Source: a virus (Duplodnaviria > Caudoviricetes). Taken from it: DNA of 64,000 nucleotides. Below the pieces are notes generated by a model. That model saw only the letters and a list, made by a program, of their open reading frames with translations, was not told where the DNA came from and did not search any database. Shown piece after piece: positions 25,333-46,637 of the stretch (position 1 is its first letter; every line of letters starts with the position of its first letter). The position numbers and the translations under genes are program-made. The DNA lies in IMG/VR virus record IMGVR_UViG_3300037419_001469, positions 1 through 64,000 of that record. The stretch is one strand, 5' to 3'.

Positions 25333-25381
25333 GATCTTCTCCATTTACAGTAAAGGAATGCCCATCTCGTCAATGGGCCTA

Positions 25382-25825
25382 CTACGGCACGACAACACCA
25401 GGATTTAGCCTGGCTTCCAGCTCTTTCACCTTCTTGCGCAGCTCGTCGACCTCCTGCACCAGTGCAAGCACGAACCCGTCCCCGGTCACGTCCCGGTTCC
25501 ACGGCTCGCCGTGGCGGAACACTTCAGTCTTGCCATCCTGGTGCATGACATAGCGGTACTTGCCGTCATAGACGGTGACGTCATACATAGGGATTGGCGC
25601 GAAATCGGCAAAGCTGTGACCAAGCTTCTCGATCATGGCGCCCTTGCACGAATCGCACAGCGACATGCTGCCGCGCTCGCCATCGCTTCCCGCCTTGCGT
25701 TCGGTGGCGATAACGGTCGGCTTGCTCGTGCAGCGTACCCAGGGACGCGGTCCGAGCGTCATGAAGCTGCCTTCCTGGATCAGTGCCTGGCACTGGTTCG
25801 GGTCCGGTGGGATCAGGTCAGCCAT
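25382..25825 (-). CDS. hypothetical protein
   Basis: start MADLIPPD. Confidence 0.55.
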   Translation of the reverse strand: MADLIPPDPNQCQALIQEGSFMTLGPRPWVRCTSKPTVIATERKAGSDGERGSMSLCDSCKGAMIEKLGHSFADFAPIPMYDVTVYDGKYRYVMHQDGKTEVFRHGEPWNRDVTGDGFVLALVQEVDELRKKVKELEARLNPGVVVP

Positions 25826-26183
25826 ACACGATCTCCCCGAAGCACGCGACCTGCACGATGACGTCAGCCGCGTCGGCGTCGATGTAGCAGCCGATGTTGT
25901 CCTGGTCACCAATCGAGTCGCGGATCCATTGCCGGATCTGGTCGTTGACCTGGACCTCGCCGTTGGCCAGCTGGCGCACGGCGGCGCGAATCTGGTCATA
26001 GTCGACGGAGACTGCCTTATCTCTGTCTGGCATGATCTTCCAGCCAACGACCTTGTTGTCATCATCCAGCAGATGATGTGCCCCGGCGCACCAGTAATTG
26101 ATACCGCCTTCGAAAGCGGTGTCCATGACATCAACCACATACCGATCAGTGATCGTGGTTGACGGTGTGATCAAGGTGTCCAT
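25818..26183 (-). CDS. hypothetical phage protein (EGGINYW family)
   Basis: GGAGAG RBS; AFEGGINYWC...IDADAADVIVQ...FGEIVYG. Confidence 0.7.
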   Translation of the reverse strand: MDTLITPSTTITDRYVVDVMDTAFEGGINYWCAGAHHLLDDDNKVVGWKIMPDRDKAVSVDYDQIRAAVRQLANGEVQVNDQIRQWIRDSIGDQDNIGCYIDADAADVIVQVACFGEIVYG

Positions 26184-26385
26184 CTTTTCTCTCCTCGGAG
26201 AATTCGACATAGAAGCCGTCCCGTTCAGCACGCACTGTCCCATGCGCCTCGGATGACCGGAACGGATGCTGGTAAAACAGCACATAGGCCATCGAGTTCG
26301 CACAGAACAAGGCACGAATGCGAGATCGATATTCGATGTACTTGTGGGCCGAGCCATCGCAGCGGCCGAAAGAGACGGTGTACAT
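26146..26385 (-). CDS. hypothetical protein
   Basis: fills gap between neighbours. Confidence 0.4.
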   Translation of the reverse strand: MYTVSFGRCDGSAHKYIEYRSRIRALFCANSMAYVLFYQHPFRSSEAHGTVRAERDGFYVEFSEERKDGHLDHTVNHDH

Positions 26386-26390
26386 AATTG

Positions 26391-27545
26391 CTATCCAATA
26401 TAGGTTTTGCGCGGCGGGTCTTCCCCGTACAGGTACTCGCGCAGCTCGTTGACGAAGCCAACAGGATCGTTACGTGCGTATCGGACCATTTCCTCCCTGG
26501 TCATGAAGCCGTCCGGGTCATCGAGATCGATGTATCCGCCATAGCCGAGATCGAACATGCTGCGGCTGAACTGCCGCGCCTCGGCCGGGTCCCTCTTAGT
26601 GGGAAGCGATTCCCAATCAAGAGAGATGCAGGCATCGCGCAGCGCCATCAGGTGACCGACATCGAGCATTTCGCTGCCGGTGTGCTCCTTCTGGTAGCCG
26701 ACCGAGACGTTCGTGCATTCAGGGATGCACTCGATGTATTCCTTCGTGTCGGTATAGACGCCGCTATCGTCCGGGCTGTAAAAGAAATTGAAGTTGAGCG
26801 TATTCAGGGCGTCGGCCAGGGCCAGCGCGAATTCATCCGAGCAGCAAGGCTCTCCGCCCTGGTGCGAGATGATGGAATCGGTCGCCTTGCGGTCGAACGC
26901 GATGGCCCGATTAAACTGCCGCAGGAAGTCGGGCTCGTATTGGGCCATCCAGGACGCGCCGATGCCCCCACACTCCTCGCCGCGGGTGATGACATAAGTG
27001 CCTGGCACGCCTGCGTCGATCATCTCCAGCAGCAGCCACACGCCGGCCCCGTCATCCGCGCCCAGGGGCTCGCCGTCTTCCTTGAAGATGTGCCTCAGGA
27101 TCGGGTCGTAGGACAGCACCTGCGGCCCTTCCTTGCGGTGGACGGTGTCGACGTGGGCCGAGAACAGCGTTTTCGAATTCTCTCCCACGGTGATCACATA
27201 AGCGGCGATCTGCCGGTCCCCGTAGATGGCCGGGTTGTAGGGTTTGATATACCTCTCGCACCATGCCCGCTCGGCATCGGAATCGTGCGGACGCTTCACG
27301 CCGAGCATGGCAAACAGCCGCGCGTCCAGGCCCTCCGGCAGAGACTTGACCTGCGCCTTCGGCGGTGGCAGCGGTTCCGGCTCGGCCTTCTTGAACCAGG
27401 CCGTGGGCAGCCCCGTGTGCAGTGGGTTCGGCGCCTTGCTGATCTTGGTGGTCTTGACCTCGATGTCGGGCTTGGAGGTCTTGGATGTCTTGGAGGACTT
27501 CGGGGCGCTCGTGTTGAGCACGCCCTTCTTTTCGGCGGTTTTCAT
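26391..27545 (-). CDS. M20/M28-family zinc peptidase-like protein
   Basis: AHVDTV, GADDGAG, GEECGG(I)G, AFDR, GYQKEH metal-ligand pattern. Confidence 0.8.
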   Translation of the reverse strand: MKTAEKKGVLNTSAPKSSKTSKTSKPDIEVKTTKISKAPNPLHTGLPTAWFKKAEPEPLPPPKAQVKSLPEGLDARLFAMLGVKRPHDSDAERAWCERYIKPYNPAIYGDRQIAAYVITVGENSKTLFSAHVDTVHRKEGPQVLSYDPILRHIFKEDGEPLGADDGAGVWLLLEMIDAGVPGTYVITRGEECGGIGASWMAQYEPDFLRQFNRAIAFDRKATDSIISHQGGEPCCSDEFALALADALNTLNFNFFYSPDDSGVYTDTKEYIECIPECTNVSVGYQKEHTGSEMLDVGHLMALRDACISLDWESLPTKRDPAEARQFSRSMFDLGYGGYIDLDDPDGFMTREEMVRYARNDPVGFVNELREYLYGEDPPRKTYIG

Positions 27546-29356
27546 GCGCACACCTCTTGTTCAGGTTCATTTACAGTAAATGGGACAACTGCATCAATGC
27601 GTGCAGCGTGAACAAGTTCGGGGTGGAATAGGCTCCAATCCCATGTTCCGTCCGGGCACTGAATCATATCCGCTTCCTTGAACCAATAAAAGCCCCCGGG
27701 TGACATATCGACAACAGCTTCGTCTTGATCCCACGCAAGCTTTCCGTCGATCAGCTCGACGGTATCGGCAACGTGCGCGAATTCCCCGTTGTAGAGCATG
27801 CGGCAGTCGGTGTCATTGAGGAGCATCCAACTCTCGTCGGCGCACTGCACGCAGTCCTCCTCCAAGGCGTAGTCGCCGTTATAGAGCTCGACCACGCCCT
27901 CATCGTCGTCCAAGGCCCAATCGCCTCCGACCAGTTCGACCACGCTGCTATCCGAAGACAAGGCCCACCGCTCATCGCCATCCTTGTCATCGATCAGCTG
28001 GACCAGGTCGTCGTGGCCATCGGAGGCATAGCGGCCGTCGTACAACTCGGTGCAGTAGTCCTTGTCCTGGTAATCGCCGTCGACGTCGAGCACGATGCCG
28101 TGGTAATCCAGCACGCTCTGCCGGTCCAGATACCAGTTCTCCCCGACCTGGATGGCGCTGCCGATGCGGACATAGGTTTCATCGCCATGCTGGCCGTAAT
28201 AGGCATAAACATAGTGCTCGTCCCTGCAGTAGCTGCAGATGTCATGATCATGGTGCTCGGAATAGCTCAGGTCATCGTTATGGACGCGGGAATCGCAGCA
28301 GTCGCAGTAGCTGTAGTGCTCGTCGTCGTCATCGTTATCGTCGTCACCATCCATGATGCCGTTGGCATTGGCCGCATCCTTGCCCGTGTCGCTCCAGAGG
28401 AAGTAATCGCGCTGCGTGGCCGAGTCGTAAAGCGGCCCCTCGACTCTCTGGTGGCAGCCGTCGAGGTACGGCATCAGCCAGCCGCCGCAGTCGAGGTCGA
28501 TGCACTGCAGCTTGATGCCGAGGCCGCCGAATCCGTCGACCTTCTCGTAGCCCAGGTCCTTCAGGCGCGAAGCCAGGATCTCGCCATCGTTGCCGTAGTA
28601 GCGCACGAAGGCCTTGTTCTTCATGTCGCACAGGCAGCGCGCGGAAGCGCCGTTGGGCGAGCCGAGGTAGGCAAGGCCAAGACGGTACGAGCCGTCCGCC
28701 TCCTGGTAGCCGTAGACCTCGACCGGGTGCATGTTATCGACGCGGCAATCGTCCCCTTCCATGCAGGACTGGATGCCGCAGTTCTCGTACACCTCGCGGA
28801 TCGCCTCCGGCCCGACCGCCCACTTGATCTCGTCCTGGTGGATGTTATTGGCGATGTCGCGGATCTGCTCCTGCGTCAGCACGTCCGCATAGAACTTCTG
28901 CAGGTAGCGGCCTAGCTTCATTTTCACTTGGCGATCGGCCAGCCCATACTGGTGGCTCGGCGTGTACGCGATCATCGTCGGGTCGTCGGTCGACAGGTGG
29001 ACGAAGTGGTACACATAGCGCAGCCGGACATTCTCCGGCAGGTTGCGCAGGCCGTAAATCAGATTCGACACCGGCTGGTAGTGGCCGTGCCAGAAACGCA
29101 TCGCCTCGCGGTACAGCCACCAGTTGAGGTCGTTCGGCTCGGCATTGCAGTAATCCTTGAACCGATCAAGGTCTTCGGGCGCGACGCCCTCCGGAGGGTA
29201 ATTGCACATCGGGCTTTGCTTGACGCGGAAAGGATGGCCGACCGGGCTCCTGTGCGTCTCCAGATACCAGTGCGTGGTCCAGAAGTAATCGGTCTCCCGG
29301 TCGACATAGACCCGGTAATCCTCGAACGTCTTGATCGGGGTGATGTTCTCAGCCAT
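27542..29356 (-). CDS. large acidic protein with Cys/His cluster and C-terminal ~13-residue repeats
   Basis: 604 aa ORF, GGAG RBS, CDCC/CSYC, repeated V.L..G.(W/Y)AL units. Confidence 0.75.
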   Translation of the reverse strand: MAENITPIKTFEDYRVYVDRETDYFWTTHWYLETHRSPVGHPFRVKQSPMCNYPPEGVAPEDLDRFKDYCNAEPNDLNWWLYREAMRFWHGHYQPVSNLIYGLRNLPENVRLRYVYHFVHLSTDDPTMIAYTPSHQYGLADRQVKMKLGRYLQKFYADVLTQEQIRDIANNIHQDEIKWAVGPEAIREVYENCGIQSCMEGDDCRVDNMHPVEVYGYQEADGSYRLGLAYLGSPNGASARCLCDMKNKAFVRYYGNDGEILASRLKDLGYEKVDGFGGLGIKLQCIDLDCGGWLMPYLDGCHQRVEGPLYDSATQRDYFLWSDTGKDAANANGIMDGDDDNDDDDEHYSYCDCCDSRVHNDDLSYSEHHDHDICSYCRDEHYVYAYYGQHGDETYVRIGSAIQVGENWYLDRQSVLDYHGIVLDVDGDYQDKDYCTELYDGRYASDGHDDLVQLIDDKDGDERWALSSDSSVVELVGGDWALDDDEGVVELYNGDYALEEDCVQCADESWMLLNDTDCRMLYNGEFAHVADTVELIDGKLAWDQDEAVVDMSPGGFYWFKEADMIQCPDGTWDWSLFHPELVHAARIDAVVPFTVNEPEQEVCA

Positions 29357-29449
29357 TTTGCTACTCCTTCGAGTGAAATTAAGCCCACAGTGGGCGGCTA
29401 GAAACGGGCCTCAATGGCGAGGCCCTGGGAATCACACTTAGTGGGGATC

Positions 29450-29770
29450 TCATCCCATTGCGCGGACTTGGCGCTGCACCTCGGACAGCGGGATCGGAGA
29501 CCAGTACAGGTCGCGCTCGATGGTCAAGCCTCCGGGTCCGCGGATCATCTCGAGTTCGTCGATCGAGACATAGCCAAGCTCGGCCTCGTCGGCGTAATTC
29601 AGCAGGCAGAAGCCGAAGGCCAGGCGCTTCTCGGGGTCGTACTCGGTCAGCCACCACGTTGCCATGGCCCAAGGACAGAACAGCTTGACGACGCATTGCG
29701 GGTCCGGGATGCGCTCCTGCGAGTACAGCGGCGGCAAGAGCTTGGCCGCTTCGTTATCGATCAGCGTCAT
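29450..29770 (-). CDS. DUF2958-like protein
   Basis: VKLF.P...ATWWLTEYD...FG...ELGYVSIDEL...IERDLYW. Confidence 0.75.
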   Translation of the reverse strand: MTLIDNEAAKLLPPLYSQERIPDPQCVVKLFCPWAMATWWLTEYDPEKRLAFGFCLLNYADEAELGYVSIDELEMIRGPGGLTIERDLYWSPIPLSEVQRQVRAMG

Positions 29771-30057
29771 TGCCGGCCTCCGCACGTCGGGATCACGTTG
29801 TCTTTCGGCTGCACCAGGTGCAGCACGATCTCGAGCGATGCGGCCAGCTCCATCGCCGCGTCGTGGTCGCTGAAGTCGGCCACCGATTCGATGCCGCCGA
29901 CTTCGCCGCGGTAATGCAGCGCCACCATCCAGGCGTTGGCCTGGGCTTCGTCAGTGGGCAGCAGGGCGCCATTCATGTATCGCATCGGAAGCAGCTCGAC
30001 GGCATCGAAGTCCAGCAGGCTGCCGGTGAACTCAATACGGGCAAAGGTCTCAGCCAT
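29767..30057 (-). CDS. hypothetical protein
   Basis: RBS and overlaps. Confidence 0.6.
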   Translation of the reverse strand: MAETFARIEFTGSLLDFDAVELLPMRYMNGALLPTDEAQANAWMVALHYRGEVGGIESVADFSDHDAAMELAASLEIVLHLVQPKDNVIPTCGGRQ

Positions 30058-30403
30058 GATCGGTCTCCCTGATCTTGGCCTCGACTTCCTCGACGGCCTT
30101 CGTGTACGGTGCGATACCGCCGCTGTTCAAGCCGTCGACGTTGAGCAGGAAGGCCAGCTGGTGGCAGATCAGGCGGACCGCGGTGTCCTGGCAGACGGAG
30201 TCGGTGCCGCGGTAATCGGCCGATCTCGCGAACTCGTCGATGGCCGCGACCAGCGAGCGGGCCACGCCGCTCGGATTGCAGGCGCCCTGCGAGATCGCGA
30301 TCGCATCGCGGTATCTCTTGCCGAGTTCGTTCTTGCTGATGACGATATGGGTCATGTCCAGGGTCCGGAGTGCGGACTGGACAAGCGTGATGTCTCCGCT
30401 CAT
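30050..30403 (-). CDS. hypothetical protein
   Basis: follows TTTACNGTAAATGGAGG element. Confidence 0.65.
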   Translation of the reverse strand: MSGDITLVQSALRTLDMTHIVISKNELGKRYRDAIAISQGACNPSGVARSLVAAIDEFARSADYRGTDSVCQDTAVRLICHQLAFLLNVDGLNSGGIAPYTKAVEEVEAKIRETDHG

Positions 30404-30429
30404 GGGAGCCTCCATTTACAGTAAACGGG

Positions 30430-30681
30430 TTAAAGGCGATCGACCAGCGACTCGATCTCGGGTTGGGGCAAGGTGGTGACTTCCTTCTTCGGATCGGCCC
30501 CGCGATCCTCGAAGTATTTGCCGACCACGCGCGAGGTCGTGCGGCTGTGCCTGGTCTGCGACTTGAAGTAGCCGTGCTCCGGGCGGTAGCCCGCGACCGG
30601 CGTGTCGTGGTGAAACAGCAGCTCGGTGCCGTCGTGGAGCGTGACGGCGATGGCGTTGTTGTGGAATTGGGCGACCATCAT
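30430..30681 (-). CDS. hypothetical protein
   Basis: GGAG RBS; HSRTTSR motif. Confidence 0.6.
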   Translation of the reverse strand: MMVAQFHNNAIAVTLHDGTELLFHHDTPVAGYRPEHGYFKSQTRHSRTTSRVVGKYFEDRGADPKKEVTTLPQPEIESLVDRL

Positions 30682-30989
30682 TTCAGTGTCTCCAACAGGA
30701 TGTCGATCCAGCGCAGTTCTTCCTGCTTCAACCTCATGTGAGGAACCAGGGCCGGCGTGATCGTGGCCAGCACGCCGCGCGCGGAGGTCAAGGCGGCGAC
30801 CAGGGCCTCGTGGTTGTTGACGGCCTTGACGATGAATTCGACATTGGCTCGCCGCTTGTCGTCGAACGTGTGGAAACAGGCAACCTCCCTGCCATCGGCG
30901 CCTGCGATGCTCAGTGGGTAGTAATAGGTTCCCCCGGTCCTGATTTCCCACGGTGTCGGTGCCGGTGCGTTTTCAGTTCCCATGATCAT
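30678..30989 (-). CDS. hypothetical protein (TPxPW...NAxxIxxAxN type)
   Basis: PTPWEI...ANVEFIVKAVNNH..L..AL. Confidence 0.65.
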   Translation of the reverse strand: MIMGTENAPAPTPWEIRTGGTYYYPLSIAGADGREVACFHTFDDKRRANVEFIVKAVNNHEALVAALTSARGVLATITPALVPHMRLKQEELRWIDILLETLK

Positions 30990-31257
30990 CTCCGATCAGC
31001 TTTGCGTTGATGGCGGCGATGAACACCGACTTCTTCGCTTCGTCATCGAGGAAGTACGGCTCGGGCATGCCGAGATCCTTGGCCAGCTCGCGCACATCGA
31101 TGTCGTCGCGCTCATCGCCGTTCAGCACCGGATCTAGGGTGTAGAAGCAGAAGTTGACGCCCTGCTCGATTTCGTCATCCTTGTAGGTGTGGTACACCTT
31201 GACGCCGTCATGCTCGATGAACAGTTCGGCGTCGACTTCGGTTGTCAGGTATGGCAT
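30973..31257 (-). CDS. hypothetical protein
   Basis: AGGAGG RBS. Confidence 0.65.
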   Translation of the reverse strand: MPYLTTEVDAELFIEHDGVKVYHTYKDDEIEQGVNFCFYTLDPVLNGDERDDIDVRELAKDLGMPEPYFLDDEAKKSVFIAAINAKLIGDDHGN

Positions 31258-31266
31258 GTGGGCCTC

Positions 31267-31674
31267 CTAGTAATTGAAGCTGACTCGAATCTCTACCCGG
31301 TACTCGCGACCGCGGATGTGGCGCGCGGTGGCGCTGTAGCTGGCACAGCCGCAGCAGTCATATTCGTGATCGCAGCCCCAGGCCGAGAACTCGCTTTGCA
31401 GCGCGCGAATCATCAGGTCTTTGTCCTTCCAGCCGCGCGGCGCAATCACGCGGTGGACGTAGGTCGGACCATCGGACGGGTCGAGCTGGTCGATGGCGCG
31501 GTCCAGGCCGCGCGCATGACGCAGGCCGTTGGCGATGGCGAAACGGGTGGCCGCGTGGATCTTTTTCGGCTGCAGAACTTTCACCCGCGCCACGTCGCGC
31601 CATGCGTCGAGATGGCGCCAGGTGCCGACATACTTGTGCGTCAGGCGCTCGGACAGGGTTTGGTAGTGGGCCAT
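31267..31674 (-). CDS. hypothetical protein with CxHxxDCCGC motif
   Basis: GAGG RBS before MAHYQ. Confidence 0.65.
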   Translation of the reverse strand: MAHYQTLSERLTHKYVGTWRHLDAWRDVARVKVLQPKKIHAATRFAIANGLRHARGLDRAIDQLDPSDGPTYVHRVIAPRGWKDKDLMIRALQSEFSAWGCDHEYDCCGCASYSATARHIRGREYRVEIRVSFNY

Positions 31675-31675
31675 G

Positions 31676-31924
31676 TCACACCTCGACGTGGGTCGTGACG
31701 GTGTAGGTGCCGTCGTCGCACAGGTGCAGCTTATGCACTGTGGGCGTGTCACCGATCCAGATCGTGAACTCGCCTGACGTGCCTTCTCCAGATGGGACCA
31801 GGGACATGTATTCCATCTCCTCCAGTCTGCGCATCATCTCGAAAGCGTTAAACGGACGCAGCACGACCTCCATCGTCGGTATGGTCGTACTGCCCTCTTT
31901 GACTTCCATCGTCTTGATGGACAT
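31676..31924 (-). CDS. hypothetical protein
   Basis: AAGGAG RBS. Confidence 0.65.
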   Translation of the reverse strand: MSIKTMEVKEGSTTIPTMEVVLRPFNAFEMMRRLEEMEYMSLVPSGEGTSGEFTIWIGDTPTVHKLHLCDDGTYTVTTHVEV

Positions 31925-31942
31925 GGTGCTTCTCCTTAGCGG

Positions 31943-32293
31943 TTAAGGGTTGGCGATATGCCGCAGGACACGGTGCGCCTTGTCCTTGAAGGCGTTGAGC
32001 AGTTCCCACACCTCGCCGGTATCGGTGTGCTCGTTCTTGCGGCACTTGAGGTTGAAGGTTTTCACTTGCTCAAGGTGGTGGCGCACCAGGGTCTCCAGGC
32101 GCCGATGCACGTTCGGCATCTGTTTCATGCTGCTATCGAGCAGGTCGACCTGGGTCATGCAGCCGACCTCGTCGACGACGTTAAACACCAGGGCGTGCGT
32201 GGCCGGATGCTGCGCGGCGCGCGCCGCGGTGGCCGCCTCGAGCGGGTTGTTGGCTTCGACATCGATATGCCAGGAGACGCGGTAGGTTTTCAT
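31943..32293 (-). CDS. hypothetical protein
   Basis: GAGG RBS; Y.V.W.ID..A..P.EAA pattern. Confidence 0.6.
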   Translation of the reverse strand: MKTYRVSWHIDVEANNPLEAATAARAAQHPATHALVFNVVDEVGCMTQVDLLDSSMKQMPNVHRRLETLVRHHLEQVKTFNLKCRKNEHTDTGEVWELLNAFKDKAHRVLRHIANP

Positions 32294-32529
32294 TCCTCGC
32301 TCCCACTAAGTATGACGACGTCGGACATGTCGATCTCAGCCCCGGAAATCGTGCTCGGGTCGAGGACCATGACCAGGCACGCCTCCACGCTGATCTCGCC
32401 GCCCGGCGCAAGCAGGTCCCGGGCATCCGTCTCCGTCATCCCGTCGACCTCGACGGCGTGTTCCAGCGCGACATCAAACACCGCCTGCACATCGAAGATG
32501 CGCAGGTCCATGATGAATCTGGCTTGCAT
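32290..32529 (-). CDS. hypothetical acidic protein
   Basis: GGAGG RBS. Confidence 0.6.
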   Translation of the reverse strand: MQARFIMDLRIFDVQAVFDVALEHAVEVDGMTETDARDLLAPGGEISVEACLVMVLDPSTISGAEIDMSDVVILSGSEE

Positions 32530-32538
32530 GATTGCCTC

Positions 32539-32997
32539 CTATGCGTGGTACATCACGAATCGCGAATACAGCTCGCCCAACAGGTCCGAGTTGACCGGAG
32601 ACGAGGCCCGAATCCAGACGCGGTGCGATCGCTGCATCAGCTCGATCAGGCCACGCGCAGTGGCGTTGTCCGCCCACAGCATCGTGTGAGTGACGACGAG
32701 CAGGTCCTGGGCCGGGATCGCGTAGCTTTTTTCGACGGCATGCTTCGGCGCCATCAGGTTGACGTAGCGCGGCGCCGAATGCGCCCGGGCCTTGTCCCTT
32801 CTCCAGAAGTGCTGCAGCGTCGTCGGCGTGATGCCGAGCACGCGGCTGCCGGCCGGCAGGGTTTCGATGGCGGCCAGCATCGGGCTGGTCTGGTCCCGGC
32901 TCACGTCCGCATAGAAAATCACATGCGAGTTCTTCGTCAGGAATTCGGCGAGGTCGGCCTGTTCGACGTCCAGGGTTGGCGAGGTAATGCTGTTCAT
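32539..32997 (-). CDS. hypothetical protein
   Basis: start MNSITSP overlapping upstream stop. Confidence 0.55.
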   Translation of the reverse strand: MNSITSPTLDVEQADLAEFLTKNSHVIFYADVSRDQTSPMLAAIETLPAGSRVLGITPTTLQHFWRRDKARAHSAPRYVNLMAPKHAVEKSYAIPAQDLLVVTHTMLWADNATARGLIELMQRSHRVWIRASSPVNSDLLGELYSRFVMYHA

Positions 32998-33422: not shown

Positions 33423-33448
33423 GGTCATCTCCATTTACGGTAAATGGT

Positions 33449-37704: not shown

Positions 37705-37705
37705 T

Positions 37706-38860: not shown

Positions 38861-38892
38861 GACACTTCTCCATTTACAGTAAATGCGGGTAG

Positions 38893-39186
38893 TCAGCCCG
38901 GGATTGTTTTTGCTGCGCGCTCCTGCTCGATGGCTTTCCAGCCCTTGATAACAACAGACTCGGGGTCGAGAGCCGCCTTCAGCATCGACCCCATCATCTG
39001 CTGACTGTGGGCGATGGAGCTGTTAAGCAGTTCTATGTATTCAGTCTGGTAATGCTCAAGCTCCTTCACCCTACGGCGCAGGTACTGGTTCTCGTCATAG
39101 ATGGCCAGCACTTCCTCGGCCATCCTGACCACGGACGGCGTTTGCACGCGCTGGAAGTCATCTTCCATATCGAATGGGGATTCCAT
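38893..39186 (-). CDS. hypothetical coiled-coil protein
   Basis: GAGGAG RBS before MESPF. Confidence 0.6.
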   Translation of the reverse strand: MESPFDMEDDFQRVQTPSVVRMAEEVLAIYDENQYLRRRVKELEHYQTEYIELLNSSIAHSQQMMGSMLKAALDPESVVIKGWKAIEQERAAKTIPG

Positions 39187-39196
39187 CTCGTTCTCC

Positions 39197-39772
39197 TCAG
39201 CCGCCGAACGTGCGATCCAGCTCGTGCTCGATCCTGGCAATGGCCAGCGCCTTGTGGTCGGCATTGGTCTCGTGGCCCTGCAGCGGCAGGCCGTGATACG
39301 CGATCAGCTCGGCGTCATAGCGGCCCTCGCCATAGGTCGAGAACAGGCGGTCGAAGGCAAGGTCGCGCATTGAAAACGGCGCGTTGTCATGGTCGGTGCC
39401 GCCGAAGATGCGGTTCAGGGTGGCGTCCATGCCGTAGTTGGCCTCGAAAAGGGCGAAGCGCCCGCCGCGGTGCCGGCCGGAGCTGGCCTCGATGTAGATG
39501 CCCTGCTGCTGAAAATAGTCATACAGCGCGGCGGTGCCGGCCAGGCAGAACATGGTCCCGCAGGCGGGCTCGAACTCGCCAGTCGGCCTTCCGTCTTCCG
39601 TGTGCTTTTCATCGACACCGCCGTAGGCGAAATCGGCCAGGTTGAAACGCTCGACATCTGCCGCCTTGGCGATGGCCAGTAGCACGCGCAGGTTGCGGCG
39701 CACAGGGTCGGACTCAGGAATCGAGGCCGGGTCGATGATGTTCTTGATCGGGAACGTGACGAGGTGTTTCAT
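39197..39772 (-). CDS. hypothetical protein, paralog of 36040-36597
   Basis: follows palindromic element; shared motifs. Confidence 0.7.
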   Translation of the reverse strand: MKHLVTFPIKNIIDPASIPESDPVRRNLRVLLAIAKAADVERFNLADFAYGGVDEKHTEDGRPTGEFEPACGTMFCLAGTAALYDYFQQQGIYIEASSGRHRGGRFALFEANYGMDATLNRIFGGTDHDNAPFSMRDLAFDRLFSTYGEGRYDAELIAYHGLPLQGHETNADHKALAIARIEHELDRTFGG

Positions 39773-39808
39773 GTGGGTCTCCATTTACAGTAAATGGGTG
39801 GATAGGGA

Positions 39809-40453
39809 CTACTTGATGCGCACCTGGTGGAACTTCTGTTCGACGACGATGCGCACCGGCTTGCCGTCGCGCTCGATCTTGGCTTCCATCACCATCGGGT
39901 CGTTGCAGACGGTTTGCCAGACGTTTTGATCCTTGCCGCCGACTGCCTGGGCCATGCGCTTTTCCAGGTCGTCGATCGCTTCCTCGGAAACGAAGTCGGC
40001 ATTAAAGCGGTGGAACAACTGCTTCTGGCGCCCGGCCTCGTCGATCTCGGTGATCGTGTGCTCGATCATGTTCCCGAATTTCACCTGGTCCTGCTTGGCC
40101 GCCATCAGGTTGGCCAGTTCGAGCAGGGCTTCGGTGTCGGAGATCGTCCCGGCCTCGATCCTGCGGCGCAGCTGGCAGCCCTGGCACTCGCAGCCGTTAT
40201 CCGGCTCGGTATTGGCCTTGGCCGCGCCCAACAGATCCACCATGTCGAGCAGCTTCAGGTTCGACGCCGGGGACACGCCGAGCGATTGCGCGATCGCCTT
40301 CTCGAGTGAATCGCGCAGCCGCGGCGGCATGTCCTCGACTTTTATCGCCTTGCCCAAGCCGCCCTTGATGTGGACCAGGGTTTCCAGCATTTCGCTGGAG
40401 GCAGGGTCCAGCAGCACCGGAAGCGGGACGCCGGGCATATTCTTCTTTTCCAT
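39809..40453 (-). CDS. hypothetical protein with CxCxxC
   Basis: AAGGA RBS. Confidence 0.6.
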   Translation of the reverse strand: MEKKNMPGVPLPVLLDPASSEMLETLVHIKGGLGKAIKVEDMPPRLRDSLEKAIAQSLGVSPASNLKLLDMVDLLGAAKANTEPDNGCECQGCQLRRRIEAGTISDTEALLELANLMAAKQDQVKFGNMIEHTITEIDEAGRQKQLFHRFNADFVSEEAIDDLEKRMAQAVGGKDQNVWQTVCNDPMVMEAKIERDGKPVRIVVEQKFHQVRIK

Positions 40454-40579
40454 AGTCATTTCCTTTGGCGATGGCGGTGGCGAGCAGCAAGCCGGCAAGG
40501 GCCATCACAACCAGGCCGGCAAACAGGGACAGGATGAAAACGGACTCCGCCTCCATCCCGATGAACAGTTGGATCCACC

Positions 40580-40738
40580 TCACAACTTTGCGACGAGCCA
40601 GCAGACCGCACCTCCGATAGCAACATAGGCGGCGGTCCAGCCCTGGAATGAGAAGGCGGCGAACCAGTCGTGAATCTGCTTGACCGTGTCGTGCGCCTGG
40701 CCGGTGGCGATCGCCACCAGGATGTCAAAGGCATCCAT
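40580..40738 (-). CDS. small membrane protein
   Basis: AAGGAG RBS before MDAFDIL; C-terminal hydrophobic helix. Confidence 0.5.
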   Translation of the reverse strand: MDAFDILVAIATGQAHDTVKQIHDWFAAFSFQGWTAAYVAIGGAVCWLVAKL

Positions 40739-41135
40739 GAGAGCTCCTTTCGTCCTGATCCATGCGCTCGGCCTCGTCTTCCCACGAGTAGCAGGTCGAG
40801 CCATAGGCGCACGGTTGCTGCGTCCAGCCCATGCGGGCAAAGAAAGACATATCTCCCCGGCTCAACTCGAACACCTCCCGGACGATCTCCAGCGTGTTCT
40901 CGGCCAGGCCCCTCGCCTCGCGCCTCCGGTCGCGGAACAGCGGATGGCCCTCCTCGCTGCGCCGCACCTGCACGCCCTTGAAATAGGACGGATGCGACCA
41001 GCGTCGGCCATCGGCGTGCTCGGCAACGACGAAATAGGCTTCTCCATAGAACGGGGTGCCGTCCTCGGAAACGCCAGCGTGATAGGACTCGGAAGCGATG
41101 CCAAAGCTGATTTGGGTTTGCATGATGGACTCCAA
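40725..41135 (-). CDS. hypothetical protein
   Basis: YGS..Y...D...E C-terminal motif. Confidence 0.6.
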   Translation of the reverse strand: MESIMQTQISFGIASESYHAGVSEDGTPFYGEAYFVVAEHADGRRWSHPSYFKGVQVRRSEEGHPLFRDRRREARGLAENTLEIVREVFELSRGDMSFFARMGWTQQPCAYGSTCYSWEDEAERMDQDERSSHGCL

Positions 41136-41188
41136 CAGTTGGAGAGGTGGGCTCCCACTCAGTGTGGGAGGGTGAGGTCAGACTGAGT

Positions 41189-41704
41189 TCAGGCTGTCGT
41201 CAAGCCTTTGTCAGCATCCGGGCAAAACTGTGGCGCTTCGGCGCCGGCATCGGCCAGCTCCGCCGCTTCGATCTCCGCCAACTCCGCCTCCGCCGCCTCG
41301 CTCAAGGGTTCGAGTGGCGCGACATACGGAGCTTCGACCAGGGCATTGTGGTCCCGGTTCAGGCGGATGATGTCGGAGATGACTTTGGCCTCGATCAGGT
41401 CCAGGGCCGGCAGGCCGGTCTTGTCATACGGGGAGGCATAGGCGGAGAAGACGCTGCGCAGCTGGAATTCGTAGCTGTTCGGGCTGATGGAATTGAGGCC
41501 GAAATTGAGGTCCATCTTGGGGCCATTCAGAGGAATCGATTCCTGCCTCAGGCAGCGCATGAACTCCGGATGCGTGATGCGCTCATGGTAGAGGGCGCAG
41601 ACCAGGTCTCCGATACGCACGCGGCGCTCCGCGTCCATGTCGATTTGCATGCCCTGGAAGATGCCGAGTACGGTGTCGGTTAAAGCTTGCGTTTTCGTTT
41701 TCAT
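41189..41704 (-). CDS. hypothetical protein with acidic tail
   Basis: AGGAG RBS downstream of AT-rich promoter region. Confidence 0.65.
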   Translation of the reverse strand: MKTKTQALTDTVLGIFQGMQIDMDAERRVRIGDLVCALYHERITHPEFMRCLRQESIPLNGPKMDLNFGLNSISPNSYEFQLRSVFSAYASPYDKTGLPALDLIEAKVISDIIRLNRDHNALVEAPYVAPLEPLSEAAEAELAEIEAAELADAGAEAPQFCPDADKGLTTA

Positions 41705-41979
41705 AGTCTCTTTCTCCTAAACGTTAGGGTTTAATTAAGCCCATTTACGGTAAATGGGTGCTTCCGACTGGTAACTTACAGTTGCGAAATGGCACTATCA
41801 CAAACATCCCTGCTTCGACATCGAATTACCGTTTGGTATTGATTATAGTCGGAGATTTTCGCGTATCGCTATGGATTTTAGGATGGTCGAGTGATTTTGT
41901 CGGGTTTTGTCCTACATTACCTCCTCTCAACATGTTTGGCGTAATTCAAACTATTAGTACATTAACTTTTCAGTTTGCA

Positions 41980-42759
41980 TTAACTGTTGGAGAACATGAA
42001 TTCCTTGCGGCTGCCATCGGCATAGTGCTTGGCATCGTACTCGGCCAGCGTCATGCCCAACGCCTCTGCCGCCTTCTGCCGCCTCTGCCGGTCAGCCTCC
42101 AATTGTGACAAGTGGTGTTGGGCGATGATCTCGTCCGTCTCTCCGTAGGGCCTTGTCGGCCTCAGAAGATCCTGGCCGCGTTGGTGGCGGCGGCGCAGCT
42201 CGTGGAAATTCACCGCGGAGATCGTCGTGACTTCGATCTCGGTCGTGACCAGGGCATCGGCCTCGTCGCTCCACTCGCGCACGCGCAAGGTGTAGGGGCC
42301 GTAGCCCTCGGGCAGATCCTCGCCTTGGTGCGCCTCCAGGTATTGCGCCAGCTGCCGCAGCGTCATCAGCTGCCCATTGTTGAACGGCGTCTTGACCAGG
42401 ATCGTTTTCGCCTGCACCGATTTGGCCTCGGCACGGGTTACCCATACGGCATTGGTCGGGTTGAAGCCGACTTTCAGGTTCTTGCGCCCGAGATAGATGC
42501 GGCGAAAGCGCATCGGCTTGGATTCGTCATCGTCCCAGGCCGGGTACATGTCCTCGACGAAGGCATGGAAATCGAACCAGCGCCGCATCACGAACGCACC
42601 CTTGGCGCCCAGGGCGCTCCAGTGCTTCGATTTCGGGTCGGCGCAGCCGTCGATCATCTTTTTCCATTCCCGGTACAGCGGATGGTTCGAGGAGCCGCGC
42701 GGTGCCGATGGCGGCGGGTAATCGAGGTCGGCAAGGTCGGCCGGTTGGACGGTTTCCAT
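41980..42759 (-). CDS. degenerate HNH-endonuclease-like protein
   Basis: HPLY..W..M...C..P....W..LG.KG..V..RW..F..F..DM pattern; expected LDRIDN..GY.P.N segment reads LGRKNLKVGFNPTN. Confidence 0.55.
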   Translation of the reverse strand: METVQPADLADLDYPPPSAPRGSSNHPLYREWKKMIDGCADPKSKHWSALGAKGAFVMRRWFDFHAFVEDMYPAWDDDESKPMRFRRIYLGRKNLKVGFNPTNAVWVTRAEAKSVQAKTILVKTPFNNGQLMTLRQLAQYLEAHQGEDLPEGYGPYTLRVREWSDEADALVTTEIEVTTISAVNFHELRRRHQRGQDLLRPTRPYGETDEIIAQHHLSQLEADRQRRQKAAEALGMTLAEYDAKHYADGSRKEFMFSNS

Positions 42760-42816
42760 GAAATCTCCATTTACAGTAAAGGACTAGGCGGATAAGGCTT
42801 GGCATTCCGGCTTGGC

Positions 42817-42822
42817 ATTATA
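42817..42822 (-). promoter_or_regulatory. perfect -10 TATAAT of a probable early promoter
   Basis: TATAAT ~58 nt upstream of 42759; TTGCGG 19 nt further upstream. Confidence 0.45.
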
Positions 42823-42844
42823 CGGCCGAAAATGGCTTGTCCCG

Positions 42845-43168
42845 CAAGTATGAGCAAATGTTGAGAAAATATTTTCGAAGGATTTTTGAATTGATCAAAC
42901 TTGGATCACAAAAATATGCCGGCTAAAAAAATTCTCAACATTTGTTTATACTTGAATGTCATTTATAAGAAAAAAATTTAATCCTTATGAATCCTTGACT
43001 TATAAATGTTGTTATATTTGAAATCGGTCGACCTTGCGCTTGTGAATCTGGCAATTTCGATGGCAGTGTGACAAGACAATAACCATGCTTGCGGTAGGGC
43101 CGATTTCGTTGTCAGAGTGCTATGCCAAGTACCGAGTGCAGAATGGTCGTGCCATTTGCTCATACTTG
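42845..43168. repeat. nested inverted repeats around an AT-rich core (origin-like)
   Basis: 16-bp IR 42845-42860/43153-43168; 13-bp IR 42855-42867/42932-42944. Confidence 0.7.
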
Positions 43169-43199
43169 GGTAGTTTTTCCATAGCACGAGCTTGGCGGG

Positions 43200-43900
43200 A
43201 ATAAGTGTCGGGAATAACTGGTGAAATGGGCTGTCTGCGCAGGGCGCTCGGGAGAACGCCCTGGGGAGACACCTTTCGGTGTCGGTGGGACTGGCGCGCG
43301 TCTCCCGACGCTCGCCACGGTAGGCTCCAGGACGCTTGCCATCCCGGCAATCGCCCCTCGTCCTTGTGCTCCCGTGCTGGCGGCAGAGCCGTGTGCCGCT
43401 CGGGGAGCCGCATCGTCGAATGTCGCTGAGGTGACAGTCGTTCAGAGCTTCGAGGCCGCCAAGAACGCTTGATGGAGCAGGGGCTGACAACGCTCGAACC
43501 CACACGTTGCCAGTGCCGGCCGCCCGCGCGTATCGCTACGCCTGAGGCAGTGGCCGGGTCCGCTTGCGCGGCTCTACTCCAGGGGTCACCGGAATCTCAC
43601 GACCGGCGCTTGCGCGCCGCATCCTTCGATGCCGGAATCGGCCCGGGCGATGCTGCTGCCCGGGCCTATCCTGATAATCAAATTGTCAGATCATGGGTTC
43701 ATCCGCGCGCCAGGGGCGATCATCACCACCAGCTGGTGCGCGAAGCCGCAGGGCCGCGCCTGATCTGCGCATGGCCCTGCAGGAACCGCCCGTTCATGTC
43801 ACCGCCGCGCCGCGCGAGGCCGAATCGGTGATACCGGGTCGATTGGTTCATCCTGCCGAAGAATCGGCATTGGCAAGCGCGGGGCTTGCCGATGCGGACT
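43200..43900 (-). ncRNA. candidate large structured ncRNA
   Basis: at least 12 hairpins; five clean GNRA tetraloops on minus strand; no RBS-supported ORF. Confidence 0.5.
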
Positions 43901-43905
43901 CGCAT

Positions 43906-44088
43906 TTACTGTAAATGGCGCGGCCGGTGAGATTCGAGACACGCCTTGATGGCGGCGCAGTAGCGTCTGTCGCATTCCTTGACATCGCCATCGCTGCACA
44001 TGCCAGCGGCGCGCATGCGCCGCGCCTCTTCCAGTTCTTCGCCATACTGATCTGCCAGCGCGCCAAGGCGCTTTTGTTCGCTTGTCAT
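43906..44088 (-). CDS. small hypothetical protein ending RHLQ* inside palindromic element
   Basis: GGGAGG RBS before MTSEQK; stop supplied by element. Confidence 0.6.
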   Translation of the reverse strand: MTSEQKRLGALADQYGEELEEARRMRAAGMCSDGDVKECDRRYCAAIKACLESHRPRHLQ

Positions 44089-44101
44089 GTCAGCCTCCCA
44101 T

Positions 44102-44242
44102 TTACTGTAAATGGCGGCGCTGGCCGCGCTGTTTGGCGGCGCGCATCGCGTCGCGCACGTTGATAGCCAGCGCGCCGAGGGCGATGCCGCAAGCGGCGGC
44201 GGCAAGCGCGAGATTGCCCGCCGCATGAATGATCGTTTCCAT
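44102..44242 (-). CDS. 46-aa hydrophobic peptide ending RHLQ* inside palindromic element
   Basis: AGGAGG RBS before METIIH; manual translation. Confidence 0.55.
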   Translation of the reverse strand: METIIHAAGNLALAAAACGIALGALAINVRDAMRAAKQRGQRRHLQ

Positions 44243-44484
44243 GATTTGCTGCCTCCTATGCGATGGCAGGCGGCGCATTTACTGTAAATGGCGCGCTGCC
44301 TGCCGATTGCGGCGCGATAGCGCGAAAGTTCGCGGGCAAGCATGCACAAGCGCGGAAAGAATCCGCCCTATTGCGCCGCCTGCCGCGCCAAATCGCCCCA
44401 TAGCGCCGCCAAATATGCCAGCGCGGCAGAATGCCCGCGCCAGCGCCGAAAATGCCGTATAGCGCCGCTATGGCGCTGCCAGCA

Positions 44485-44522
44485 TAAGAAAAGCGGCAGG
44501 GGTGATTGCTCACGCCTGCCGC
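44485..44522 (-). terminator. intrinsic terminator
   Basis: GCGGCAGG..GTGA GCAA TCAC..CCTGCCGC stem then TTTTCTT on minus strand. Confidence 0.65.
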
Positions 44523-44562
44523 CTTACTTATGCCGCCTGCCTTGCGGCAGGCGCTGAAGCGA

Positions 44563-45411
44563 TTACTTGCCGCGCTTGCCTTGCGGCGCGCTGCCTGCCG
44601 CTTCCAACTCTGCGACGCGCGCCGCCGCCGCATCGCGCGCCGCTTCCGCCGCCGCGAGATCGGCGCGCACAGCGGCCAGTTCTTCGCGCAACGTCAGCAC
44701 AAGCGCCGCGTTCGCTTCGGCGGTTTCCAGCGCCCTTTTTTGCGCCGCCGCTTCATTGCGCGCCGCTTCTATGCGCCGCGATTGCTCATTGGCCGCGCCT
44801 TCCGCCGCCGCCTTTGCCGCCGCGATGCCGCCGCCGCTGAGGAGGGCGTCGCCTGCCGCCGCCCTTGCCGCTTCGAGCACTTCCGGCGCATCGAAACCGG
44901 AGGAACAGACGGTCTGCACGATGGCGGCAACGTCGCGCTGCACCTGCTCTGCCATGCGCGTTTTTTCTTCCGCCTCCGCCGCTTCCGCCGCCTTTTTATC
45001 CTGCGCCGCGATGCGAGAACGGGCGACGGCAATCGCGTTATACGCGGCGGTTTTGTCGGCATTCGTTGCCAGCGAGCCTTCCCTTGTCCCAAGGAAAGCG
45101 CCATGCCAGTCTGTCGGGGCGATGCCGCCATCGCCGCGCATCAAGGCTTGCATCATGGCAAGGCGCGACACGGAACGCGGCACCTCGAACAGTTCGCACA
45201 GCGTGATAGCGTCGCGCAGCGCGCCGTTTTCATCGCGGCAATTTTGTTCGACTGCCGCAGAGATGGTTTTCTTTGCGGCATCGACGGTTTTTTTCGCGCC
45301 GTCAAGAATCGGTGCCGTGTCGCACAGTGCCTGCACAGCAGAGACGATTTGCTGATGCGTGACGGCAAGTGCTTTGTTGCTTTCCAGCGAGACGATATTT
45401 GCGGTTTTCAT
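44563..45411 (-). CDS. Ala-rich coiled-coil protein, first gene of the leftward arm
   Basis: 282 aa ORF, AGGAG RBS, terminator downstream, atypical GCG/GCA/AAA codons. Confidence 0.7.
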   Translation of the reverse strand: MKTANIVSLESNKALAVTHQQIVSAVQALCDTAPILDGAKKTVDAAKKTISAAVEQNCRDENGALRDAITLCELFEVPRSVSRLAMMQALMRGDGGIAPTDWHGAFLGTREGSLATNADKTAAYNAIAVARSRIAAQDKKAAEAAEAEEKTRMAEQVQRDVAAIVQTVCSSGFDAPEVLEAARAAAGDALLSGGGIAAAKAAAEGAANEQSRRIEAARNEAAAQKRALETAEANAALVLTLREELAAVRADLAAAEAARDAAAARVAELEAAGSAPQGKRGK

Positions 45412-46637
45412 GACTAGCTCCTATGGATGAAGGTTAAGGCGCACAGCGCGCCGCTGCCTGCCGCGCCGCCCATTTACTGTAAAGGGCCGGCGCTTACTGC
45501 CGAGAAACTTACTACACTGCAACTACATCAAACCATCTACTACAGTGCCAAGCATAGGCCATCAAGGAATAGAACGCAAGGTTTATCGAAAGACGACATG
45601 CCTAGTATGTATGACAGAGATCAAATGCACAGCATGTGCCGCCATGCCGTGCGCCATGTAGGAGGCGGCATGTAGCGCCGCCATATATAAGGCAGCATGC
45701 GCCGCCGCCATGCCAGCGCCGCAAGGAAGATTGTTAATAGAATGTGTCAGAATAGATGCCCACAGGCAGCAACAATGTTAACTAAATGTGTCATAAAAGA
45801 TGCACACAGGCAAAGAAAAGACACAAAAGACAGGCAAAAGTTAACAATGTTGCCTATAAAGAATGCCCATAGGAGGCGCAAGGAAGGCGCATAGGCGGCG
45901 CGGCGCGCTGTGCATGCCGACATATTGCCGCCTGCCCGATCGTTCAACAGGGACGTTTTCCTGTATGTATATACAGGTGAAATTGCACTCAAGAATCGAA
46001 AAGACAGTCTGTAAATCAATGCTTATCAGACAGTTTAGCCACCCCGCCATTGTCCACCGGCAACTAATGAGCCATCTAAGTTGTTGCCGCAAAGACAATA
46101 GCCAGCGCCGCTGACCTTGCCCAGGAGCAATGTCATGCCTATAGGCAATGGCAGCGGCAGGGATGCTGCCAGCGCCGCCGCCACTGCCGCCGCCGCCACT
46201 GCCAGCGCCGACGCCGAGCACATTGCCAGGTGGAAACCTCGAGGCCGGATGGCAGCGGCAGCGTATAGCGGCGGCGGCAGTGCCGACAGCGGCGGCAGCG
46301 CCAGAGACAGCGGCGGCGGCAGTGGCGGCGCGCATGCCGGGGAGGATGGCGGCGGCGGGGACGATGGCAGGGTGACGCCCTAGACTTTGCCGATGGGACT
46401 AACGGCGGCGCGCCCCAGGCCCCTCAAAAATTTTTTGAAAAATTTCCGGCAATAAATTGACATTGATTAGAAACAAGACCATGCTCGGCCTCTGAGACAT
46501 GCCCGGAGGCAAGAATGTGGCACCCAACCCTCGCTCTGTTGTTGCTCTGGATGGCGCCTCTGCTACTGCAGGCGTCCGTACCGCCCTGGCCTGTCTTTTA
46601 CTGGCCATCGCCCTAATTCCCGCCAACGCCGTCGACC

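Follow-up and report, generated by a model that had tools for sequence, protein, structure and literature searches.

A 17-bp palindrome repeated thirteen times in the early arm of an uncultivated tailed phage, and its possible role as an operator array

Genome setting and copy number

A short AT-rich palindrome with the core TTTACNGTAAA recurs 13 times in the genome of an uncultivated tailed phage, IMG/VR record IMGVR_UViG_3300037419_001469. The window analysed here comprises bases 1-64000 of this 84,785-bp viral contig, which is rated 98% complete and has a GC content of about 62%. The genome is laid out as two arms. A minus-strand arm runs leftward from about 45.4 kb to position 1, and a plus-strand structural arm with terminase, portal and tape measure genes starts at 46.6 kb. 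The early part of the minus-strand arm (26400..45411, minus strand; hereafter the early arm) holds about 45 tightly packed small genes, rich in ORFans and nearly all without a family assignment, which the palindrome splits into blocks. From a ParB-like gene at 25.3 kb downward lies the replication module, with an SNF2 helicase, a primase, a family A DNA polymerase, a ligase, SbcCD and ThyA. The palindrome is limited to the early part of the minus-strand arm, and its last copy heads the ParB-like gene and the replication module.

The repetition is far beyond chance. Estimated by shuffles, the expected number of TTTACNGTAAA copies is 0.01, and no shuffle attained the observed 13. All copies lie between 25.3 and 45.5 kb, the remainder of the 84,785-bp genome contains none, and 12 of the 13 are intergenic. 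Read on the minus strand, every copy is upstream of a minus-strand gene start, and all occur on a single transcribed strand. An earlier note, made from the sequence alone, had listed the 13 positions, and each was verified; that it had seen none beyond 25-45.5 kb holds across the whole genome. That note had also estimated the rarity of the element on the assumption of 65% GC; the rarity stood and the assumed composition did not, the measured value being 62%. The palindrome is clearly real, highly non-random and functional.

Anatomy of the repeated unit

The repeated unit is almost invariant. The 15-mer CATTTACNGTAAATG is exact in nine copies, and the remaining four carry one substitution each. 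All four changes fall on position 2 in the gene-distal arm, where A is replaced by C three times and by G once; apart from the centre, the motif varies nowhere else inside. An alignment of the 13 copies thus has 13 invariant positions and a free central base, which in the mRNA sense is T in six copies, C in three, A in four and never G. An outer C and an outer G are each present in 10 of 13 copies, without covariation between the two, and we therefore take the conserved unit to be a 17-bp palindrome, C-CATTTACNGTAAATG-G, in which 7-bp arms (8 bp with the flanking C/G) surround a single nucleotide.

Conservation stops at the edges of this unit. The upstream flank is not conserved, downstream only the Shine-Dalgarno sequence (SD) is, and no conserved -35 or -10 hexamers stand on either side of the motif. 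With nothing conserved past the 17 bp and the SD, the palindrome is not a fragment of a larger repeat. The central base is not distributed at random: adjacent copies agree in it above chance (P = 0.036), and those with a central A, four in number, are grouped at one end of the array (P = 0.003).

Position relative to genes and ribosome sites

The palindrome stands at a fixed junction with the ribosome site. Eight of the 13 copies touch a GGAG-type SD without any spacer, their motif end lying 8-10 nt from the ATG, as the earlier note had claimed for eight copies running straight into an SD before a start codon. These SD-abutting copies occupy about -25 to -10 relative to the ATG, within the ribosome footprint. 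More broadly, a clear gene start on the minus strand follows 12 copies at 8-59 nt. If the copies were placed at random in the arm, eight or more of 13 would fall at 8-10 nt with a probability of about 3e-15, and 12 or more of 13 at 8-60 nt with one of about 5e-11. Copies that do not abut an SD have ATG gaps of 22, 33, 37 or 59 nt, each with a separate SD. The copy at 43905 has only a doubtful 42-amino-acid open reading frame (ORF) 51 nt away, followed by what is otherwise about 1.1 kb without a convincing ORF.

The array starts beside a divergent control region. Copy 1 (45471..45485, minus strand like all others; CCTTTACAGTAAATG) is the first element past that region and lies 59 nt before the ATG of the first leftward gene, which encodes 282 amino acids (44563-45411). 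The next three copies match the 15-mer exactly with a central A. Copy 2 (44276..44290) lies 33 nt before the ATG of a 46-amino-acid ORF (44102-44242). Copy 3 (44099..44113) abuts GGGAGG, with the ATG of a 60-amino-acid ORF (43906-44088) 10 nt on, and the TAA of copy 4 (43903..43917) closes that ORF. Copy 5 (42768..42782; CCTTTACTGTAAATG) abuts GAG 8 nt before the ATG of an HNH-like gene (41980-42759). Copy 6 (41742..41756; exact, central C) follows a 275-nt AT-rich promoter-like gap and precedes the ATG of a 171-amino-acid gene (41189-41704) by 37 nt.

Further along the arm, four exact copies abut GAG and stand in short intergenic gaps: copy 7 (39782..39796; central T), 9 nt before the ATG of a 191-amino-acid gene (39197-39772) in a 36-nt gap; copy 8 (38871..38885; central T), 10 nt before that of a 127-amino-acid gene (38477-38860) in a 32-nt gap; copy 9 (35541..35555; central C), 9 nt before that of a 361-amino-acid gene (34446-35531) in a 30-nt gap; and copy 10 (33432..33446; central C), 9 nt before that of a 142-amino-acid gene (32994-33422) in a 26-nt gap. 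Copy 11 (30413..30427; CGTTTACTGTAAATG) abuts GAGG, also in a 26-nt gap, 9 nt before the ATG of a 117-amino-acid gene (30050-30403). Copy 12 (27568..27582; exact, central T), recorded at 27570, falls within the last codons of an upstream 604-amino-acid ORF (27542-29356) and lies 22 nt before the ATG of an M28-peptidase-like gene (26391-27545). Copy 13 (25342..25356; CCTTTACTGTAAATG) adjoins GAG, with the ATG of the ParB-like gene (24241-25332) 9 nt on.

Junctions that bear the motif have gaps of 26-49 nt and contain little beyond a stop codon, the motif, the SD and the spacer. Motif-free junctions of the early arm overlap or span at most 19 nt, apart from six longer gaps, three of which carry a second palindrome, CACTNAGTG, described below. 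Two motif-led genes have an identical leader of 28 bp. We considered this identity as proof of copy-and-paste and rejected it, as two motif-free genes have an equally identical 16-nt SD leader. The idea that the three clustered copies are tandem duplicates was likewise rejected, their common part being the motif and a preceding CGC only.

The motif also enters coding sequence in the promoter-proximal cluster. Three consecutive minus-strand mini-ORFs, of 40 (44279-44401), 46 (44102-44242) and 60 (43906-44088) amino acids, all end in RHLQ* because copies 2, 3 and 4 provide the codons CAT TTA CAG TAA. ORFs of this kind that use the TAA of the motif had been reported previously, and they exist; they number three where two had been counted. 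All three are putative genes; the predicted 46-residue product is hydrophobic, and that of 60 residues has four cysteines.

Promoters and the control region

AT-rich, sigma70-like promoter regions lie upstream of the copies at 42770 and 41744, and the divergent control region lies upstream of the copy at 45473. In all three cases the motif sits between promoter region and gene, in the leader. Over the arm as a whole, sigma70-like sites are not in excess (5 versus 5.9 in shuffles). No minus-strand terminator-like sites were found at the motif copies, so transcription probably reads through the motif.

Several other features were seen in these regions. At window positions 45724-45811 and 46160-46360, the divergent control region contains a 44-bp AT-rich direct repeat, 80% identical, as well as GGC/GCC-rich hexamer repeats with long inverted arms, which resemble the hexamer repeats of two related genomes introduced below. 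Between two motif copies, window positions 42783-43902 form a stretch of about 1.1 kb without a convincing ORF or Rfam match. It is mostly GC-rich, and its AT-rich end has a 30-nt inverted repeat (42845-42874 / 42925-42954) together with promoter-like hexamers.

Folding of the motif in RNA

The earlier note had proposed a stable RNA control hairpin, which our folding analysis disfavours. In RNA form the palindrome makes only a 6-7-bp AU-rich stem of about -4 to -5 kcal/mol with no T-run. Folds in context are not better than shuffles in seven of eight cases, with z-scores mostly between -0.4 and -1. Moreover, three of the four arm variants disrupt a pair, and neither arm nor outer-pair variants are compensated. 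The weak fold and the uncompensated variants indicate selection on sequence rather than on a hairpin. A stable, compensated hairpin, as in RNA operators of the MS2-coat or nut-boxB type, was not found, and an Rfam search of the whole window returned no family match.

Pairing between copies is another matter. Between molecules, any pair of copies can make a duplex of 17 bp at -19 to -24 kcal/mol, whereas the hairpin reaches -3.7 kcal/mol. Complementarity is perfect between the six central-U copies and the four promoter-proximal ones with a central A (-23.7 kcal/mol).

Relatives and lineage specificity

Near relatives of the phage were not found by megablast against GenBank phages or by peptide-word scans of IMG/VR with two early proteins and P0014. 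Among cultured phages, the closest are siphoviruses of Vibrio and Pseudomonas with genomes of 80-88 kb and about 30% amino acid identity. An alignment of ParB led to two complete viral genomes, G001 (86.5 kb) and G002 (86.8 kb), which are syntenic with the analysed phage over the structural and replication modules at 35-64% amino acid identity. Between 26.4 and 45.4 kb, the genes in common with these two genomes are the HNH-like gene and one 62-amino-acid ORF only. Closer relatives are known at the protein level, from homologues of 51-63% identity (P0002-P0005 for the ParB-like protein, at 51-59%, and P0012-P0014 for the peptidase), of which P0005 and P0014 apparently lie together on one 5,508-bp JGI contig.

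The motif follows the arm rather than the genes. G001 and G002 lack it altogether, and the leaders of their ParB-like and HNH-like orthologues contain no palindrome. We therefore regard the motif as a lineage-specific trait of a hypervariable accessory arm. These comparisons indicate an element linked to the accessory arm and not to particular genes. No other dispersed repeat takes its place in the early arms of G001 and G002, where we found only hexamer tandem repeats and one local array. A metagenome scan with the ParB alignment yielded distant loci only, all without the motif. Scans for the motif itself gave single chance matches in IMG/VR, in lower-GC contigs, and among the matches listed for GTDB genomes only single chance hits.

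The local array of the relatives consists of four copies of an AT-rich palindrome, TCTTATATAAGA, at a 23-bp period (G001 81974-82055, G002 16246-16340). It adjoins long hexamer repeats in their control region and looks like origin or operator iterons; the analysed genome has one degenerate copy only, near 45681-45692. The relatives also differ at their ribosome sites. In the analysed genome a GGAG-type SD at 5-7 nt precedes nearly every gene, and four orthologous or neighbouring leaders inspected in G001 and G002 have no SD and hold A/C-rich leader words in common. The leader sequences hint that G001 and G002 infect hosts with different translation-initiation signals. One gene of the early arm appears to have travelled widely. 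The M28-type zinc peptidase-related gene (window 26391-27545, minus strand; phrog_4191, with PF04389 on many homologues) has thousands of metagenomic homologues and occurs in early regions of unrelated Pectobacterium, Klebsiella and Pseudomonas podoviruses, a distribution by which it appears to be a horizontally mobile early gene.

Comparison with known phage and plasmid repeats

The palindrome resembles, but belongs to none of, six known systems: the Cluster O mycobacteriophage repeats, the start-associated sequences (SAS) with their extended form (ESAS), the stoperators, the SPBRE element, the KorB operator OB and the promoter early stem-loop (PeSL) elements. The Cluster O repeats are the closest formal match, SAS/ESAS the closest in position and stoperators the closest in proposed mechanism. 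Analogies to SAS, stoperators and PeSL had been drawn before; the resemblance stands, whereas membership fails on sequence, symmetry or composition. The conserved inverted repeats to which the phiC31 repressor binds are a further analogue.

Cluster O phages carry a 17-bp dyad, TGTTCGGNNNCCGAACA, with 7-bp arms and a 3-nt spacer, in more than 30 copies genome-wide, of which about one third lie inside genes, and the repeat is conserved across the cluster (PMC4351075). Both elements thus have 17 bp, 7-bp inverted arms that are near-invariant and a short free spacer, and in both the intergenic copies occupy small gaps, for the most part within a single leftward operon of non-structural genes. For the Cluster O repeats a dimeric binder was suggested and never identified, and recombination at the sites was implicated in insertions and deletions (PMC4351075). 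The Cluster O repeat is absent from host genomes, as the present motif appears to be. The two differ in sequence, which is GC-rich and unrelated there and AT-rich in a 62% GC genome here, and in the spacer, 3 nt versus 1 nt. Here, moreover, there are 13 start-proximal copies in one arm, and relatives lack the motif.

The SAS of Cluster K is a 13-bp asymmetric sequence, GGGATAGGAGCCC, that contains the SD core and is conserved across subclusters (PMC3203893). ESAS are inverted repeats with 17-bp arms and 4-13-bp spacers, show no RNA-type covariation and were argued to be sites of a DNA-binding protein (PMC3203893, PMC12699233). As in our phage, SAS/ESAS number 11-19 copies, are restricted to the non-structural half, stand a few nucleotides from start codons, precede unrelated gene families and at times hold the upstream stop codon. 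In contrast to the SAS, our element is AT-rich and symmetric, spans 17 bp and stops at the edge of the SD, and it is not conserved ahead of the same gene families in related phages, as G001 and G002 are without it. The host phylum and the phage lineage are also different.

Stoperators of Cluster A phages (L5 gp71 and relatives) are asymmetric 13-mers, bound by a monomer and dependent on orientation (PMC9283540). At least 20 near-identical copies lie in promoters and between closely spaced genes of transcribed arms, a placement that our motif shares, and a single repressor silences whole arms through them by blocking both initiation and elongation, the mechanism that we propose below. They differ from the perfect palindrome described here, and they belong to temperate phages with an identifiable immunity repressor, whereas no repressor or lysogeny genes were found in our genome, most of whose early proteins are ORFans.

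SPBRE is a 15-bp element upstream of about 10 genes of phage SPbeta, mostly of unknown function, and is bound by MrpR; it was predicted in silico decades ahead of that binder, which has a recombinase fold and no classical helix-turn-helix (HTH) signature (PMC10516654). SPBRE, in contrast to our motif, belongs to promoter regions in a temperate prophage of Bacillus and does not abut an SD, and its sequence and lineage are unrelated. The operator OB of plasmid RK2, with the core TTTAGCGGCTAAA, is read by the ParB-family global repressor KorB (PMC11790492). It too is a multi-copy TTTA..-N-..TAAA palindrome, and here a ParB-like gene directly follows the last copy. OB differs in sequence and arm length, KorB sites can be kilobases from promoters and are not fused to ribosome sites, and G001 and G002 have the ParB-like gene without the motif but retain CACTNAGTG. 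Finally, PeSLs of T4-type phages are composites of about 100 bp that join a strong sigma70 promoter to a stable GC-rich terminator stem-loop (PMC2839356, PMC4122927). They share with our motif the repetition in intergenic positions upstream of ORFans in hyperplastic early regions, where modular shuffling is implicated. Our element, however, is 17 bp long and has no promoter hexamers, stable stem-loop or T-run.

A putative operator array for the early arm

We favour, at a probability of roughly 45%, the reading that the copies together make up an array of operators through which one dimeric regulator would control the early arm. A single sequence-specific factor, probably dimeric, would recognise the 17-bp palindrome as a cis-regulatory site, which stands in the transcribed leader of each early block's first gene, immediately 5' of its ribosome-binding site. 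Bound at all 13 sites, this regulator, encoded by phage or host, would silence the whole accessory early arm of 20 kb or set its timing. It may block initiation at the three promoter-proximal sites and act as a roadblock to elongation at the intergenic ones, in the manner of stoperators. The data show how many copies there are, where they stand and how symmetric they are, as well as a lack of selection on structure and the restriction to one lineage; binding by a protein, DNA rather than RNA as its target, and repression as the effect are what we infer.

Several findings argue for an operator. The near-identical copies are confined to one arm and placed strictly ahead of gene starts, nothing besides the 17 bp and the SD is conserved, and the RNA hairpin is weak with uncompensated variants. 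The motif also stands between gene and promoter-like region where the latter exists, and no terminator was found beside the copies. Two-fold symmetric conservation over 17 bp with a free central base is the geometry of a dimeric HTH operator, and at least one basic HTH protein specific to the lineage is encoded in the genome. There are also precedents in which dispersed repeats have been proven or argued to be protein sites: the L5-type stoperators (PMC9283540), SPBRE with MrpR (PMC10516654) and the Cluster O repeats (PMC4351075). The earlier note had listed a phage-wide operator among its explanations. Its operator part gives the best fit, with symmetric half-sites, no covariation and 17-bp geometry; its phage-wide part fails, the copies being confined to the early arm.

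Other findings weigh against this reading. Searches of about 50 early proteins and of six frames detected no Xre-type HTH, ribbon-helix-helix protein or sigma factor, a classical repressor fold was likewise missing among about 60 proteins scanned and in six frames, the proteins that head motif-led blocks are mostly acidic, and the gene of the HTH protein has no motif copy nearby. The motif was found in none of the relatives examined. The SD-proximal arm is invariant in 13 of 13 copies and the distal arm varies in four of 13, a mild asymmetry that is unexpected for a symmetric DNA-binding dimer. Lastly, the abutment to the SD is exact in eight copies and the distance to the upstream stop codon is variable, from overlap to 25 nt, which suggests coupling to translation rather than to transcription.

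Candidate binders

We searched for the binder with Pfam and PHROGs on the same set of about 60 proteins and with six-frame searches for RNA_pol, Sigma70_r2, HTH_3 and RHH_1. No RNA polymerase was recognised by either route, a result that for the T7 type is uninformative because the control of that search gave no signal. No RNA-binding protein was detected among the early proteins scanned, and no integrase, recombinase, repressor or lysogeny gene was seen in the protein scans, most early proteins being ORFans. As MrpR itself lacks an HTH signature, a failed HTH search does not exclude a repressor.

One protein stands out as a candidate. It is a very basic protein of 102 amino acids (47666..47974, plus strand), modelled at a pLDDT of 88 as a helical hairpin with a C-terminal HTH. 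It has weak Pfam matches to HTH_7 and HTH_23, its Atlas neighbours are uniformly HTH families at lead-level scores, and a fold search with the model returned weak matches only, all of them HTH domains with E above 0.3. The gene is not present in G001 or G002, its start overlaps the stop of the upstream gene, and its GC content at third codon positions (GC3) is atypically low, at 0.50. Lying inside an operon of high GC3, it looks like a recent foreign acquisition. We regard this protein as a weak candidate for the binder, whose modelled architecture would fit a dimer that binds a palindrome and which has no direct link to the motif.

The HNH-like protein (41980-42759, minus strand) is, apart from the 62-amino-acid ORF, the sole early-arm protein kept in G001 and G002, at 44-47% identity. 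It has no Pfam match, searches of PDB and Atlas gave no decisive result, and its basic coiled-coil C-terminal tail has bZIP-like matches that are insignificant. As for host factors, none of several transcription-factor boxes (TyrR, LexA variants, EvgA, GacA, CRP, FNR) is known to match the palindrome in spacing.

The genome contains a second family of palindromes, CACTNAGTG, in 23 copies versus 0.7 expected, with the consensus TCCCACTNAGTGGGA. It occurs on both arms, within genes as well as in the three early-arm gaps (in the window at, for example, 2502, 29435, 34154, 41156, 48425, 60998 and 61015). G001 and G002 retain its core in 5 and 7 copies versus about 1.4 expected, with different flanks that co-vary (CTACACTNAGTGTAG). 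The family resembles a recognition sequence for some conserved protein, perhaps that of the ParB-like gene. Because the ParB-like protein is kept in motif-free relatives that retain CACTNAGTG, it is more plausibly paired with CACTNAGTG than with the 17-bp palindrome.

Alternative readings

A sequence-specific RNA operator beside the SD is possible, and we consider action at the RNA level the first alternative, albeit an unlikely one. Here the motif in the mRNA would be a translational operator or processing site, at which a phage protein or a palindrome-bearing RNA blocks the ribosome-binding site or triggers cleavage and so silences the first gene of each block. In favour of such a site stand the same SD abutment within the ribosome footprint, a spacing to the upstream stop that varies, an SD-proximal arm without any change, the restriction of all copies to a single transcribed strand and the duplexes that any two copies can form, and a translational role was assigned to SAS from the same kind of position (PMC3203893). 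Yet five copies lie 22-59 nt from an ATG with an SD of its own, where occlusion would fail. The weak hairpin without covariation and the failure of protein scans and Rfam to detect an RNA-binding protein or a known RNA family also speak against it, and perfect two-fold symmetry would be superfluous for a single-stranded RNA site.

A special form of RNA-level control, which we regard as very improbable, would use the strength of the intermolecular duplexes and the perfect complementarity of A-type and U-type copies. Abundant short A-type transcripts from 43.9-45.5 kb, with four copies, would pair over 17 nt with the six U-type leaders. If this were true, pairing beside the SD would silence the first gene of early blocks or mark it for cleavage, and one class of phage message would regulate another through a common self-complementary leader. 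To our knowledge, no global RNA-RNA switch of early genes of this kind is known in tailed phages.

It is improbable that the palindrome is primarily a recombination junction, a repeat kept as short homology for the insertion, deletion or swap of accessory cassettes, with regulation secondary. The motif is restricted to a hypervariable, ORFan-rich arm that is entirely replaced in G001 and G002. The HNH-like gene, kept in these relatives, makes up a block by itself and is flanked by copies on both sides, and the sharing of central bases by neighbours and the clustering of A-type copies are as local duplication would give. Recombination is moreover documented between Cluster O repeats and between PeSLs (PMC4351075, PMC2839356). 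The earlier note had asked whether gene content changes at the element. In a coarse comparison with G001 and G002, a two-gene insertion ends at the copy that precedes the ParB-like gene, and the border between variable and conserved sequence is no more than one block away from the last copy. Against a junction, 15-17 bp is very short for homologous recombination, the copies have no flanks in common, the 28-bp leader identity is paralleled by the SD leader of a motif-free gene pair, and no integrase or recombinase was seen. Exact SD abutment and near-perfect conservation would also be left unaccounted for. The hypervariable arm and the shared central bases allow a secondary role in recombination and do not prove one.

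Promoters of the T7, N4 and T4-late types are short near-invariant elements ahead of many transcription units. Our motif shares this layout, its TAAAT-GGAG junction is loosely like the TATA-GGGAGA of the T7 promoter, and the T7-like polymerase search does not prove absence, but a phage-specific promoter for an unrecognised RNA polymerase or sigma-like factor, with a start at or just past the motif, is highly unlikely: promoters are asymmetric whereas two-fold symmetry runs through all 17 bp of the element, six-frame searches and scans of about 60 proteins recognised neither an RNA polymerase nor a sigma region 2, no unexplained ORF other than the 604-amino-acid ORFan has the length of a single-subunit polymerase, transcription that began in sigma70 fashion 7 nt past TAAAT would strip the SD from eight messages, there is no conserved -35 or -10 partner, and sigma70-like sites do not exceed those of shuffles.

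Implications

Dispersed start-linked repeats of early phage regions have been known since the stoperators, and SAS since 2011, and bar a few systems their readers and mechanisms are mostly unsolved. The phage described here is an unusually clean case, with 13 near-perfect copies, a fixed junction with the ribosome site, confinement to one arm and a lineage-specific origin. A single clean 17-mer in combination with a small proteome makes it a compact test case for action on DNA versus RNA. The palindrome marks the accessory and probably host-takeover arm as one co-regulated unit, which helps in the annotation of uncultivated phages.

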